The position numbers and the translations under genes are program-made. Shown here one piece after another: positions 1 through 38,200 of a DNA stretch of 40,673 nt. Under the pieces are notes generated by a model that was given only the letters and a program-made list of their open reading frames with translations, ran no database searches and was not told the origin of the DNA. The first letter of the stretch is position 1, and each line of letters starts with the position of its first letter. The stretch is from a virus: UHGV virus genome UHGV-1386588. One strand, written 5' to 3'.

Positions 1-121
1 GTAGCGGCAGGAGTCTATGAACACGTTTCAGTGAAACCATTTAAGAAAGTGTTCTAATTTATTAGAAATTTGCACTTAAATCAAAAAGTTACGGACAATT
101 CAACCACCAATCAATAAATTA

Positions 122-156
122 AAGGGCACATTAAAGTACACAATATTTGTGCCCTT
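122..156 (-). terminator. putative stem-loop downstream of invertase gene
   Basis: Perfect 9-bp inverted repeat AAGGGCACA (122-130) / TGTGCCCTT (148-156) with a 17-nt loop, A/T-rich flanks on both strands; lies just 3' of the invertase stop at 176. The long loop makes it a weak call. Confidence 0.3.
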
Positions 157-175
157 CTCTGTTTCTTTCCCGTTA

Positions 176-724
176 TCAGCTAGCTGGAAACTTTTTATAC
201 AGAGTTGAGAGCCCTACTCCATACGTTTTTGATACGCTTTGTCGTGATTCACCGGTTGCCATCCGCTCCCCCATTTCCCTCCATTGCTCATCCGTGAACT
301 TAGGCCTGCGACCACCAACTCGCCCTTTTGCCCTGGCTACGGCCAGCCCTGCTAAGGTACGTTCGCTATTAAGATCAGATTCATATTGTGCTGCGGAAAG
401 GATGTTACGAAAGTTATAGCGGCCGCTGGCTGTTTTGAGATCCACGCCATCGGTAATACTGCGGAAGTTGATACCCTTTTCCTGTAACTGCTGGAACATC
501 AACAGCGCATGCAGAACGTTGCGGCCTATCCTGTCCAGCTTCCAGACCACCAGTTCATCCCCCGGCTGCATAGTGGCGATCAGCCGTTTTAGAACCGGCC
601 GATTCGATTTCCTCCCGCTGGCATGCTCTTCAAAAATTTTCTCACAACCCGCTGACTTGAGCGCCGTTAGTTGCAATTCAGTGTCCTGGTGGTTTGTTGA
701 TACTCGGGCATAACCGTAAATCAT
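176..724 (-). CDS. pin: serine-recombinase DNA invertase (Pin/Gin/Hin/Cin family)
   Basis: N-terminus MIYGYARVSTNHQDTELQ is the resolvase/invertase catalytic motif with the active-site Ser; C-terminal HTH. ATG at 722-724 preceded by AACAGGAGA RBS; the ORF-track start at 883 is a TTG extension. Adjacent to an invertible tail-fibre segment. Confidence 0.9.
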   Translation of the reverse strand: MIYGYARVSTNHQDTELQLTALKSAGCEKIFEEHASGRKSNRPVLKRLIATMQPGDELVVWKLDRIGRNVLHALLMFQQLQEKGINFRSITDGVDLKTASGRYNFRNILSAAQYESDLNSERTLAGLAVARAKGRVGGRRPKFTDEQWREMGERMATGESRQSVSKTYGVGLSTLYKKFPAS

Positions 725-776
725 GGGATTTCTCCTGTTATGAAAACAGGAGAAACGGCGAAGCATCACCAGATTT

Positions 777-1211
777 TTGATGGTTATAAAAAAGGTTGGT
801 TTGGGAGAAGGTTCGGCATTACCCGTTGGCGTGCCTGTTCCGTGGCCTTCCGCCACTCCGCCAACAGGCTGGCTGAAATGCAACGGTGCCGCTTTTTCTG
901 CTGAAGAATACCCGGAACTGGCGAAGGCTTATCCGACAAATAAAGTGCCTGATTTACGCGGTGAATTTATTCGTGGCTGGGATGATGGTCGAGGGATAGA
1001 TAGTGGCCGTGCATTGCTATCTGCGCAGGGAGGAGCAATCCAATCTCATACGCATTTATTAGCTGTCCGAGTTAGCGGGGCAACATCAGCTACCAGCGCA
1101 GATGATGTATTAAAAACCGGAGGCACCTCCAGTAGGGAAACTAATGCGACGGGTGGGACTGAAACAAGGCCGCGCAACATTGCATTTAACTACATTGTAA
1201 GGGCAGCATGA
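777..1211 (+). CDS. alternative tail-fibre C-terminal variable cassette (promoterless in this orientation)
   Basis: ORF opens at the crossover site and encodes VGLGEGS across it, in the same codon phase as the NLGLGE encoded across the other repeat inside the expressed fibre gene; inversion would fuse it in frame to the constant fibre N-terminus. Stop overlaps the next start (ATGATGA). Confidence 0.7.
   Translation: MMVIKKVGLGEGSALPVGVPVPWPSATPPTGWLKCNGAAFSAEEYPELAKAYPTNKVPDLRGEFIRGWDDGRGIDSGRALLSAQGGAIQSHTHLLAVRVSGATSATSADDVLKTGGTSSRETNATGGTETRPRNIAFNYIVRAA
784..809. repeat. invertase crossover site (right inverted repeat)
   Basis: TTATAAAAAAGGTTGGTTTGGGAGAA; resembles hix/gix sites and is the inverted partner of 2581-2606 (reverse complement TTACCACAAACCTTGGTTTAGGAGAA), identical over the TTGGTTT(A/G)GGAGAA half. 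Confidence 0.8.
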
Positions 1212-1819
1212 TGACCACAAAAAAAATCACTTTGGATGAAAACGGTTTTGCCACTGAGGCTGGATTTATTACCGTTTACAACTACAATGGCGAAACGCGT
1301 GAATATATTGGTTCATCCGTTGAATATCTGCCGGTTGGCGCTGGCGTTCCAGCTAATTCCTGCGTTGATGCGCCGGGCAGCAAAAAAGAAGGTTTCGCAA
1401 TCTGCCGCAAGGCTGATTTAACCAGTTGGGAATACGTTGCTGACCATCGTGGCGAAACTGTTTACAACACTGAAAACGGCGATGAAATCACCATCACCGA
1501 AATTGGCGAATATCCTGAAAATACAACCACTATCGCCCCGTTAACTCCATACGATGAATGGGATGGTGAGAAATGGGTGACAGATACTGAGGCACAGCAT
1601 AGCGCCGCAGTAGAAGCGGCAGAAGCACAGCGCCAGTCACTGATTGATGCTGCAATGGCTTCGATCAGTCTGATTCAGCTGAAATTACAGGCCGGGCGGA
1701 AGCTGACGCAGGCAGAAACCACCCGGCTTAACGCCGTGCTTGATTACATTGACGCGGTGACGGCAACAGATACGAGCACCGCGCCGGATGTCATCTGGCC
1801 TGAACTGCCGGAGGCGTAG
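1208..1819 (+). CDS. tfa: tail fibre assembly protein (Tfa; partner of the alternative cassette)
   Basis: 203 aa; Tfa/Mu-U-like layout with conserved C-terminal DxxDxxxTxxAPDxxWPxxP-type tail (DAVTATDTSTAPDVIWPELP); sits immediately after the fibre cassette. Confidence 0.75.
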   Translation: MMTTKKITLDENGFATEAGFITVYNYNGETREYIGSSVEYLPVGAGVPANSCVDAPGSKKEGFAICRKADLTSWEYVADHRGETVYNTENGDEITITEIGEYPENTTTIAPLTPYDEWDGEKWVTDTEAQHSAAVEAAEAQRQSLIDAAMASISLIQLKLQAGRKLTQAETTRLNAVLDYIDAVTATDTSTAPDVIWPELPEA

Positions 1820-2234
1820 GCCATTCAATATCTGGAGCACTGGAGGTATCAACCAGTTCCAGTGCGTCCAGATAATCCAGCCACAAATTATATTGCGCCA
1901 GTTCCTCACCTTTCAGGCGACCAATCGCTGCTTTACCAGGCCATTGCTTACTGTATATGTATTCGTTGACCTGATTAATCAATTGCTGCTTTTCCAGTTC
2001 GGCTGCGGCAATTTGTTCCTCATGAGTTGGCGGTGGAATTTCCCCCCAGGTGGGAAGGCCATCATCACCCGCGATGCGTACTTTCCCTTGCAACGTTCTG
2101 TCTTCAATAAATTCCAGGTAAGTGTCATATGTCACTTCGACAATATCAGCAAGTTCCCATCCGGCCTGTTCATATTTCGCCACATCATTTTTAGCGAAAA
2201 AACTATTATTTGAGGCGCTATAAACCATTTCCAT
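1791..2234 (-). CDS. tfa: tail fibre assembly protein (Tfa; partner of the expressed fibre)
   Basis: 147 aa; C-terminus LELVDTSSAPDIEWPTPP parallels the opposite-strand Tfa; directly follows the expressed fibre gene; 3' ends of the two tfa genes converge. Confidence 0.75.
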   Translation of the reverse strand: MEMVYSASNNSFFAKNDVAKYEQAGWELADIVEVTYDTYLEFIEDRTLQGKVRIAGDDGLPTWGEIPPPTHEEQIAAAELEKQQLINQVNEYIYSKQWPGKAAIGRLKGEELAQYNLWLDYLDALELVDTSSAPDIEWPTPPAVQAR

Positions 2235-2235
2235 A

Positions 2236-2862
2236 TTAATACCCTACTGCAATATAAAAAACTGATTCACCAGCGTCCTGAGAACCTACCCCCGGAACGC
2301 CAGACCAGGCTTTGTTAATGAATGCAAAACCGGTATTACTCAGATCAGATGCTCTGTACATCGGGCTGAACATCCAGTAGTTGGCTCCATATGTTTGTCC
2401 GAAAACAATGCCATAGCACTGATTTGTAAATGGCGTAGAAAATAATTTTCCACCAGTACCAGCGATAGTCCCGAATCGCATCTGGAACCCATTCGGGAAA
2501 TTAATTCCGCCTGCCGGTGAAGACCAGTAAGACATATCAGGTATCTGATTATCTCCTGTGCCCACATCCCTTTTCGCCGCTTCTCCTAAACCAAGGTTTG
2601 TGGTAATCGCTGTCGCCAGCTTTGCCACCAGTCCATCAACGTCACCATCATCGAGCGCGTCCAGTTCGGCGTTCGCGATAAACTGCCCCAGTACAGCCGC
2701 CATCGTCGACGGTTGGCGCAGCGCTTTACTGACCTGTGCGCTGGATGCTTTACCCGAGGAGAATCCTTTCTTCAGTGCGGTTAGCGTCTCCCATTCCTCC
2801 TGCGAGGTAACATTTGCATTAGCATCTGTCGCAAACGCTTTAAAATCATTAGTTCCAGCCAT
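2236..2862 (-). CDS. stf: side tail fibre protein (constant N-terminus outside, variable C-terminus inside the invertible segment)
   Basis: Start chosen at ATG 2860-2862 overlapping the upstream stop (TAATG); 208 aa; the crossover repeat at 2581-2606 lies inside the gene, splitting constant from variable part. Confidence 0.75.
   Translation of the reverse strand: MAGTNDFKAFATDANANVTSQEEWETLTALKKGFSSGKASSAQVSKALRQPSTMAAVLGQFIANAELDALDDGDVDGLVAKLATAITTNLGLGEAAKRDVGTGDNQIPDMSYWSSPAGGINFPNGFQMRFGTIAGTGGKLFSTPFTNQCYGIVFGQTYGANYWMFSPMYRASDLSNTGFAFINKAWSGVPGVGSQDAGESVFYIAVGY
2581..2606. repeat. invertase crossover site (left inverted repeat)
   Basis: TTCTCCTAAACCAAGGTTTGTGGTAA, close to hixL-like consensus (AAACC..GGTTT core); inverted partner of 784-809. 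Confidence 0.8.
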
Positions 2863-37918: not shown

Positions 37919-38200
37919 ATGAACGCATACCTCACTTACGACCGCATCGAAGATCGGCGCTGGGTTGAGCAGCAGCTCACCGACGAGAAGGAGAAGTGGA
38001 TCGACGACCGGGCGAAAGAACTGATCGCCATGTTCCCGAAATATGCTTTGCAAATGAGTAGCCTGTTTCTCCCAAAAGAAGCGCAAATGGCACTAGTCGG
38101 TGAAAAGGCAGAGGAAGCCTATAACGACTATGTCACACGCATCTGTTACGACCGCGCCGAAGAAGAGTGGGATCGCCTTCATCCAACCTGCCCGTTTTAA
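37919..38200 (+). CDS. hypothetical protein
   Basis: 93 aa, ATG at 37919 with GAGG RBS, directly upstream of bet. Confidence 0.5.
   Translation: MNAYLTYDRIEDRRWVEQQLTDEKEKWIDDRAKELIAMFPKYALQMSSLFLPKEAQMALVGEKAEEAYNDYVTRICYDRAEEEWDRLHPTCPF

Follow-up and report, generated by a model that had tools for sequence, protein, structure and literature searches.

The window analysed here, a stretch of 40,673 nucleotides from the virus genome UHGV-1386588, very probably carries a working switch that operates by site-specific DNA inversion, as Mu G, e14 P and P1 C do. It lies at the tail-fibre end of a temperate SEN34/Omnitron-like myovirus prophage beside yciI. According to the proposed mechanism, dimers of a 182-residue serine invertase would bind two 26-bp sites, cut at the central TT/AA dinucleotide and exchange strands, flipping about 1.8 kb of DNA. 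Because the sites share a reading phase inside the fibre gene, the 90-odd constant N-terminal residues of the fibre would be joined either to the present tip or to a collar-type tip. The matching Tfa gene would follow directly downstream on the same transcript in either orientation, so that a lysogen population would release particles with two receptor specificities. The two tips are expected to bind different receptors, which would make host range phase-variable.

Prophage Context and Architecture of the Segment

The prophage occupies the yciI-kch locus, with a phi80-type att site just downstream of the 3′ end of yciI. Phages HK225 and mEp237 share window positions 39-807/810, including their annotated attP, and another copy of the same prophage (L064) is flanked by yciI/yciA/yciB. 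The prophage is likely full-length, being apparently complete at ~40 kb; the window ends before the integrase. A locus taken at one point for the K-12 e14 element (H17) was rejected, as it proved to be a degraded prophage at yciI.

Table 1. Features of the invertible segment and its surroundings (window coordinates)
Feature	Position	Strand	Details
Host yciI, 3′ end	1-57	+	Position 1 corresponds to L001 position 3001, which falls within the annotated yciI CDS
Serine DNA invertase, 182 aa, nucleophile Ser9	176-724	-	Pfam Resolvase 3.6e-39 and HTH_7 1.5e-09
Conserved 12-bp stem-loop in invertase leader	728-756	-	Pairs Shine-Dalgarno AGGAG
Left (invertase-proximal) crossover site	784-809	+	TTATAAAAAAGG TT GGTTTGGGAGAA
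Silent alternative fibre tip, collar type	810-1211	+	Pfam Collar 2.1e-15
Tfa chaperone for silent collar tip, 203 aa	1208-1819	+	Caudo_TAP 8.2e-31; PHROG 105 5.7e-95
Tfa chaperone for expressed tip, 147 aa	1791-2234	-	Caudo_TAP 3.5e-30; PHROG 188 5.3e-57
Expressed fibre, whole gene	2236-2862	-	208 aa
Variable C-terminal tip, currently expressed	2236-2580	-	PHROG 1396 'tail fiber protein', residues 95-208
Fibre-gene crossover site	2581-2606	-	Minus-strand reading TTACCACAAACC TT GGTTTAGGAGAA
Constant N-terminal fibre part	2607-2862	-	PHROG 11303, residues 3-89

A preliminary description of this DNA had placed two convergent tip-plus-Tfa cassettes between the sites and an invertase immediately outside them. 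Both points are borne out: Pfam and PHROG gene calls recover the cassettes, whose tfa genes overlap by 29 nt at their 3′ ends, and the invertase gene starts 59 nt outside the left site. The silent tip belongs to PHROG 523 'tail collar fiber protein' (3.7e-72), matches the T4 gp37 tip (PDB 2XGF, 1.3e-20) and gp12, and is 99.7% identical to the expressed tip of fixed-fibre relatives (L068-L070). The expressed tip retrieved no match among Pfam and PDB sequences, and the AlphaFold model of the expressed fibre (mean pLDDT 45, pTM 0.24) was too poor for a fold search or for a structural comparison of the two tips. None of the five proteins matched an NCBIfam family above its cut-off.

The fibre gene probably starts at the ATG at 2862 (MAGTNDF...), which overlaps the stop codon of the upstream wedge gene. 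Databases carry the 208-aa form, and an identical protein is encoded on other contigs (P0121). The constant part is 98-99.7% identical in four relatives (L001-L004) independent of the tip that follows it, and the boundary between the two PHROG families coincides with the crossover site. The segment displays the split-fibre architecture of the Mu G type, with the constant part outside, two tip and chaperone sets inside, and in-frame joints.

Crossover Sites

Crossover sites of the DNA-invertase subclass occur as two inverted 26-bp sequences, in which 12-bp half-sites surround an identical, non-palindromic 2-bp core. Both window sites display this 12-2-12 layout with a TT core. The 26-bp inverted repeats of the preliminary description stand as to position and inversion, but they are imperfect rather than identical 26-mers: direct alignment of 784-809 with the reverse complement of 2581-2606 gives 20/26 identities, with 13 of 14 in the segment-proximal portion and the central TT/AA present in both. 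The G-L-G-E core that it had read in a shared codon phase is recovered on translation of both sites (V-G-L-G-E-G and N-L-G-L-G-E-A). Its suggested alignment with known invertase sites identified the core and inner half-site as common to pix and cix. Positions 796-811 are identical to the e14 inverted repeat TTGGTTTGGGAGAAGG, which has been validated experimentally (PMC12529663).

A 19-nt degenerate pattern occurs in only two places, which are the two sites (0 expected; 100 shuffles). Searching with the 14-nt half-site at up to two mismatches yielded three matches against 0.36 expected, the third of which (38067) is unrelated, 35 kb away and at chance level. The pair escaped a generic repeat finder (seed 9) because its longest exact run is shorter than 9 nt. 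A search for additional sites, as in the multiple inversion systems Min of p15B and the shufflons, found only these two in or near the segment. The left site is invariant at at least 45 related loci, and the outer half of the fibre-gene site (GGTTTGTGGTAA, plus strand) shows no variation across all the relatives that share this fibre backbone.

Flipped Product and Orientation among Relatives

When the segment is inverted in silico, the constant fibre part continues in frame and uninterrupted into the silent collar-type tip, in keeping with the earlier proposal of a tip swap without a frame change. The resulting 227-aa fusion exists in nature as the E. coli protein WP_272449721.1, an exact match, and in the relatives that encode it the joint is the predicted hybrid site TTACCACAAACC TT GGTTTGGGAGAA. 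As proof of flipping this protein was rejected: its contigs are fixed-fibre relatives without an invertase, so the product is in use, but its occurrence does not prove flipping of the window element.

Evidence on orientation was provided by 37 segments adjacent to the same invertase and left site, in which homologous cassettes lie either way round and the breakpoints fall at the site centres. The whole segments of L001 and L013 align inverted end to end beside the same invertase (1844/1844 nt, 94.7%), and those of L002 and L025 show the same relation to L030 (1867 nt, 94.4%). L015 and L042, which share a fibre backbone, carry inverted segments that match at 95.5%. Homologues of the collar cassette are invertase-proximal at ~10 loci and distal at ~8. 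Another pair first considered to represent opposite orientations (H51/H54) was rejected, since both are P2-like prophages in the same orientation.

The preliminary description had named two observations that would count against a switch, namely absence of the repeat pair from relatives carrying the same invertase and the occurrence of one orientation only. Every such relative keeps the pair. Both orientations are common among relatives, in roughly equal numbers, and the segment thus occurs both ways at the level of the clade, but the exact prophage (the window and L064-L067, from at least three samples) was seen in its present orientation only. Given this single orientation, we infer, rather than observe, that this copy is flipping now and at what rate. 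Among 5,426 complete E. coli genomes, queried with the window region, the segment alone and the relative PSJ-22, as is and flipped in silico, there was neither a match collinear with the window nor an isogenic flipped pair, because the cassettes are too mosaic. A scan of genome contigs for the junction gave no match.

Serine Invertase and Its Control

DNA invertases of this subclass are ~180-190 aa in length and comprise an N-terminal catalytic domain with Ser9/10 and a C-terminal helix-turn-helix. Judged by its sequence, the window enzyme belongs to the Hin/Gin/Cin/Pin subclass and lies nearer the invertases than the resolvases: among solved structures its closest match is Gin (3UJ3, E = 1.4e-56, residues 1-181), compared with 4e-25 for gamma-delta resolvase, and it matches PHROG 125 'DNA invertase' (6.5e-75). 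S9, R7, R65, R68 and other columns of the clade alignment are invariant with Gin, Cin and PinE. The enzyme is 55% identical to e14 PinE, 52% to Cin, 51% to Gin and 100% to the invertase of phage mEp237. Invertases of 79-86% identity from four other genera (Salmonella, Morganella, Yokenella and Serratia) adjoin the same cassette architecture. The enzyme belongs to a distinct, conserved clade within the Gin/Cin/Pin subclass.

Hin residues K47, K/R48, K/R51, Q151, R154 and L155 are reported to be uniquely conserved in Fis/enhancer-dependent invertases (PMC3798978). The window enzyme carries K46, R47, A50, E150, E153 and R154 at these positions and keeps two of the six; position 50 is never basic within the clade, and the Fis triad varies within it. 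A second hallmark is the helix-E 'Phe switch' of Hin, comprising F105, which locks the dimer, the essential F106, and M109 (PMC4513852). F105 of the window enzyme is the conserved equivalent of Hin F106, the equivalent of Hin F105 is a clade-invariant Asn104, and Hin H107 is replaced by Arg106. The F105N variant of Hin has been reported as fast and partly Fis-independent. The clade lacks most of the residues described for Fis/enhancer-dependent invertases, and the window enzyme lacks the Phe-switch residues present in Gin.

The recombinational enhancer of classical systems lies near the 5′ end of the invertase gene, ~100 bp from a crossover site, and comprises a pair of Fis sites spaced by 48 bp. 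A crude Fis scan recovers such a 48-bp pair in gin and cin (nt 46-60 and 94-108), whereas in the window invertase gene it found no recognisable Fis-site pair, the homologous 15-mers GAATTGCAACTAACG and GAAGAGCATGCCAGC being weaker than the gin/cin pair under this scoring. This scoring has little power, as does synonymous-site conservation in the enhancer region (2.31 vs 2.35 elsewhere), for which the classical control itself gives 1.93 vs 2.13. The 5′ half of the invertase gene shows low diversity among loci selected by their site, a value confounded by linkage to the search pattern.

Upstream of the gene, the leader RNA folds at -24.1 kcal/mol (z = -4.9), with 0/200 shuffles folding as well, and the same stem precedes the 79-86% identical invertases of the four genera named above. 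This hairpin probably throttles translation of the invertase. Together, the invariant Asn at the Phe switch, the mostly absent Fis/enhancer contacts, the lack of a clear enhancer and the hairpin masking the ribosome-binding site may reflect a different mode of regulation. We propose only tentatively, and with more doubt than confidence, that the enzyme represents a widespread, unstudied enterobacterial Gin-like clade regulated unlike Hin, Gin, Cin and Pin.

Comparison with Known Systems

As the preliminary description recognized, the mechanism is a known one, of the same type as Mu G, e14 P and P1 C. The closest layout is that of the e14 P segment and PinE of E. coli K-12 (stfP-tfaP / tfaE-stfE-pinE), where a constant fibre part is again combined with two convergent tip-plus-Tfa cassettes and an invertase gene immediately beyond them. 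The window and e14 have the same core and inner half-site (TT GGTTTGGGAGAA), and e14 likewise has two tfa genes that overlap tail to tail by 29 nt and a poor invertase-proximal outer half-site (pin-proximal TTTTCATAAACG). Sequencing and PCR have documented inversion in e14 directly (PMC4272514), and its sites are also flipped by PinQ, an enzyme with only 38% identity to PinE. The DNA backbones differ, with similarity limited to pin (75%) and tfa (80%), and e14 survives as a 15-kb remnant at icd, in contrast to the myovirus prophage at yciI from which the window derives. The label Pin-type, applied earlier, does not extend to the enzyme, which at its level of identity, and with DNA similarity to e14 limited to part of pin and tfa, is not a PinE orthologue.

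The Mu G segment (S-U / U′-S′, with Gin) shares the constant fibre outside, the variable parts with their own chaperone genes inside, the inverted 26-bp sites and the adjacent invertase gene. It differs in a TC core at gix, a length of 3 kb with long variable parts, and U and U′ genes that do not overlap. Gin, in addition, possesses the Fis-contact and Phe-switch residues. The P1 C segment likewise has TT at its core, with a half-site (GGTTTAAGAGAA) much like that of the window, but belongs to another phage with another fibre, and its invertase Cin carries Q, R and L as Fis-contact residues along with the canonical GRFFFHVMGALAEMERELIVERT helix. The invertase of phages mEp237 and HK225 is annotated 'DNA invertase' and is uncharacterised. 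The mEp237 protein is identical to the window enzyme, and HK225 DNA is 99.6% identical to window positions 39-807, a block that takes in both the phi80-type attP and the left crossover site. These lambdoid phages are siphoviruses with a different tail fibre, and the homology ends at the crossover site. No experimental work on the mEp237/HK225-type invertase was found in the literature searched.

Alternative Readings

The architecture could have outlived its activity, leaving a copy that no longer inverts at a meaningful rate and a prophage with effectively one fibre, whether through a degenerate half-site, lost enhancer function or low invertase expression. The five assemblies of the exact element in one orientation fit this reading, as do the strong hairpin over the invertase Shine-Dalgarno and the failure of the scan to recognise a Fis-site pair. 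The invertase-proximal outer half-site TTATAAAAAAGG is also poor, ending in ..AAAAGG instead of ..AAACC, which counts against a working switch; e14, however, inverts despite the similarly poor TTTTCATAAACG. Assemblies report the majority orientation only, the invertase ORF is intact and obviously conserved, and the left site and hairpin are invariant in at least 45 relatives that together show both orientations. We therefore consider a frozen relic unlikely. Marginally less probable is a switch that also, or mainly, serves the host by controlling a free tip-only protein that would keep other phages from adsorbing. A possible tip-only ORF of 143 aa, starting at an in-frame ATG at 780, is annotated as a gene by RefSeq in relatives, and the invertase-proximal chimeric product of e14 (StfE2) is reported to block T2 adsorption (PMC12529663). 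Degraded prophages at yciI (L003, L004 and L008) have lost most structural genes and kept the invertase and both cassettes. No Shine-Dalgarno precedes this ATG, however, and the promoter-like hexamers at 697-724 (+) that point into the ORF match at 9/12, a chance frequency (6 found vs 4.3 expected). A role in the virion is also sufficient for a prophage that is structurally complete.

It is highly improbable that no site-specific event is involved, the repeat being a conserved coding motif (the N-L-G-L-G-E linker) and the cassettes being exchanged between phages by ordinary homologous recombination. Fixed-fibre relatives that lack an invertase do keep the motif, mosaicism of the cassettes is high, and blocks of homology to other phages begin at 791-796. 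Yet the invertase-proximal copy lies outside any fibre gene and keeps the core and half-site exactly, the 12-2-12 layout and TT core are those of pix and cix, a Gin-like invertase is always adjacent, and the site centres mark the exact ends of the inverted homology. A working inversion switch is the reading that we prefer.

Implications

As a switch, the element contributes little that is new: tail-fibre segments that invert have been textbook knowledge since Mu, P1 and e14, the kind is known, and hundreds of E. coli genomes carry annotated relatives of this one. Its use lies in being a clean and apparently complete prophage whose alternative product is proven to be a real fibre, which makes host-range consequences directly testable. 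The invertase clade, for its part, provides a natural experiment on the loss or replacement of Fis/enhancer control in serine invertases. If the proposed difference in regulation is true, inversion would be independent of Fis and the enhancer, or weakly dependent on them, and limited mainly by translation of the invertase.

Segment Architecture and Crossover Sites

The tail-fibre inversion switch in the window is real and intact, and it belongs to a kind that has been known for a long time. The preliminary description had bracketed the segment with two 26-bp inverted repeats; the pair is real but the repeats are imperfect, agreeing at 20 of 26 positions on direct alignment, with nearly all matches falling within the central TT and the 14 segment-proximal nt (13/14). 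Because its longest exact run is <9 nt, the pair went unreported by a default repeat finder. A 19-nt degenerate pattern matched the left and right sites only (0 expected from shuffles), and searching with a 14-nt half-site (≤2 mismatches) returned three matches against 0.36 expected. The third half-site match, at 38067, is weak and unrelated. As had been claimed, the two sites occupy an identical codon phase in their respective ORFs, and each encodes G-L-G-E.

Coordinates of the switch components and crossover-site sequences of the window and known systems
Feature	Coordinates	Strand	Description
Invertase	176-724	-	182 aa; Resolvase and HTH_7 domains
Left site	784-809	+	TTATAAAAAAGG TT GGTTTGGGAGAA
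Cassette 1, tip	810-1211	+	Collar-domain tip
Cassette 1, chaperone	1208-1819	+	Caudo_TAP, 203 aa, after the tip
Cassette 2, chaperone	1791-2234	-	Caudo_TAP, 147 aa
Fibre gene	2236-2862	-	Upstream of the 147-aa chaperone gene
Right site	2581-2606	reverse complement	TTACCACAAACC TT GGTTTAGGAGAA
Mu gix			TTATCCAAAACC TC GGTTTACAGGAA
P1 cix			CAATCCTAAACC TT GGTTTAAGAGAA
e14 pix, fibre side			CTCTCGAAAACC TT GGTTTGGGAGAA
e14 pix, pin side			TTTTCATAAACG TT GGTTTGGGAGAA

In PHROG profiles the boundary between a constant fibre module (residues 3–89) and a tip module (residues 95–208) falls at the crossover site. When 798–2592 is inverted in silico, the constant part reads on in frame into the collar tip, and the gene for the 203-aa tail fibre assembly chaperone (Tfa) comes directly downstream, which bears out the proposal that inversion would exchange the expressed C-terminus for the silent cassette without a frame change. 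The receptor-binding ends of T4 gp37 and gp12 are homologues of the silent tip (2XGF, E=1.3e-20); Pfam and PDB sequence searches found no relative of the expressed tip.

The convergent tfa genes overlap tail-to-tail by exactly 29 nt (1791–1819), as they do in most relatives (L001, L002, L003, L004, L005, L008, L061, and e14, at L009 5018–5046) but not in Mu, whose chaperone genes lack an overlap; this conserved joint may be a cassette-exchange hotspot. Promoter-like hexamers (TTGATA-16-AATCAT, 697–724, plus strand) lie inside the first invertase codons and face the "silent" cassette. The ORF of that cassette can start at an ATG at 780, 4 nt ahead of the left site; RefSeq annotates it as a gene in relatives, and a tip-only protein may be made from it.

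Evidence for Inversion among Relatives

The 227-aa protein predicted from the flip has an exact match, WP_272449721.1. In its encoders (L068–L071), a cassette 99.7% identical to the silent one of the window meets the constant part precisely where the hybrid site was predicted. These loci, with a fixed collar-type fibre, possess neither a second cassette nor an invertase, an integrase following directly; their homology to the window (796–1844) stops 25 nt beyond the tfa stop, within the stretch that forms the opposing tfa 3′ end in the window. Their arrangement looks like what a flipped switch would leave after losing its distal half and invertase. The alternative product is thereby shown to be a fibre in actual use, but flipping by the window element is not established by relatives without invertase.

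Absence of the site pair from relatives with the same invertase was looked for, and both sites proved to be kept in all relatives having the window-type enzyme, the outer half-sites remaining with the flanks and the inner halves moving with the cassettes. When IMG/VR and metagenomes were scanned for the junction on the invertase side, 46 more loci came up, and 37 complete segments were compared. Among these, entire segments align end to end while inverted relative to the same invertase: L001 against L013 (1844/1844 nt, 94.7%), L002 and L025 against L030 (1867 nt, 94.4%), and L015 against L042 on the same fibre backbone (95.5%). Homologues of the window collar cassette are invertase-proximal in about 10 loci and distal in about 8, such that orientations are roughly balanced among loci. 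A single fixed orientation is at odds with these relatives, but the exact prophage (L064–L067, 99.985% over 6.9 kb) was recovered in the window orientation alone, and no isogenic flipped pair occurred among complete E. coli genomes.

Invertases 79–86% identical in Salmonella, Morganella, Yokenella, and Serratia adjoin the same convergent cassette pair on differing tail backbones. A P2-like prophage of ST95-type E. coli (L005/L006) carries a cassette pair about 90% identical to that of the window, alongside a PinE-like invertase of its own and the sites TTCTCGCATACC TT GGTTTAGGAGAA and TTTTCTTAAACG TT GGTTTAGGAGAA; these cassettes are therefore in use with three or more types of tail.

A Distinct Invertase Clade

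The proposed Pin-type switch with its invertase immediately outside stands as to position, the start codon lying 59 nt from the left site, but the enzyme is no orthologue of Pin, with 55% identity to PinE and 51–52% to Gin and Cin. An uncharacterised invertase of the lambdoid phage mEp237 is 100% identical. The core and inner half of both e14 pix sites equal those of the window left site, and the e14 repeat where inversion was mapped matches window 796–811 exactly (PMC12529663); e14 inversion has been observed directly in cultures (PMC4272514). The gix core of Mu is TC, in contrast to the TT of cix, pix, and both window sites. Since PinQ, at 38% identity to PinE, flips the same sites, activity of the window enzyme, at 55%, on them is entirely plausible. 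Pin-type enzymes already resident in the cell might act on the window sites in trans as well.

When 14 members of the clade, drawn from nine genera, were aligned with Gin, Cin, and PinE, helix E began invariantly with GRYNFRNILSAAQYESDLNSERT in the clade, against GRFFFHVMGALAEMERELIVERT in the classical enzymes. At the position of Hin Phe105 the clade has Asn, and the counterpart of the essential Phe106 is retained. Phe105 locks the inactive Hin dimer, and the F105N variant reportedly inverts faster, is partly Fis-free, and induces SOS (PMC4513852). Six residues have been called uniquely conserved in Fis/enhancer-dependent invertases (PMC3798978); the window enzyme keeps two of them (K46, R47) and has A50, E150, E153, and R154 at the others. 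A crude scan for the 48-bp pair of Fis-like sites found it in gin and cin, with only weak counterparts in the window. Synonymous-site conservation over the corresponding stretch was 2.31 against 2.35 in the rest of the gene, a comparison of little power, as the classical control gave 1.93 against 2.13. It is possible, though less likely than not, that the clade inverts with little or no dependence on Fis. Upstream of the invertase ATG (724), a leader stem-loop (728–756, minus strand; perfect 12-bp stem, -24.1 kcal/mol, z = -4.9) pairs the Shine-Dalgarno AGGAG. All of the clade shares this hairpin, which may serve as a translational brake or an operator; in leaders from Salmonella, Morganella, Yokenella, and Serratia, the stem is kept and the loop varies.

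Across 17 distinct invertase gene copies, nt 1–270 hold 6 variable sites and nt 271–549 hold 122; although the copies were chosen by a pattern adjoining the 5′ end, the contrast hints that recombination joined two parts close to nt 270 (window ~455).

Prophage Setting and Significance

Positions 1–57 are the end of the host gene yciI, and in many E. coli strains the yciI-kch locus holds a relative of the element. The nearest sequenced phage is Citrobacter phage Omnitron (95.7% over structural genes), followed by SEN34-like myoviruses. Genes are present for the small and large terminase, portal, protease, major head, sheath, tube, tape measure, and baseplate, and also for endolysin, a Q-like antiterminator, a CI-like repressor, Red functions, and replication proteins of the O and DnaB types. 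The window is an entire JGI contig of 40,673 nt; with the integrase end beyond it, the prophage described as full-length is only likely to be so.

The 39–810 block (attP-invertase-left site) is shared with the lambdoid phages HK225 and mEp237 (97–99.6%). Homology blocks with unrelated phages (HK225, mEp237, the Klebsiella Kp48xx series, HK97, and HK106 were compared) begin or end at 791–810 and about 2599; judged by these ends, the crossover sites act as mosaic joints between phage types. In E. coli TUM12355, TD225-C4, and isolate 44, prophage remnants at yciI-kch (L003, L004, L008) have lost most structural genes but still carry the constant fibre part, the two cassettes, and an invertase that is intact, a state much like that of e14. 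Such retention would fit a host benefit, e.g., the StfE2 adsorption block reported in 2025.

The interpretation of the preliminary description is supported; flipping of the window copy, its rate, and its receptor consequences are what we infer. The cassette pair, and its pairing with the window backbone, were absent from the complete-genome set, and the switch is for this reason a new example. A literature search found no paper on the clade: a mechanism of known type is here served by an unstudied group of invertases.
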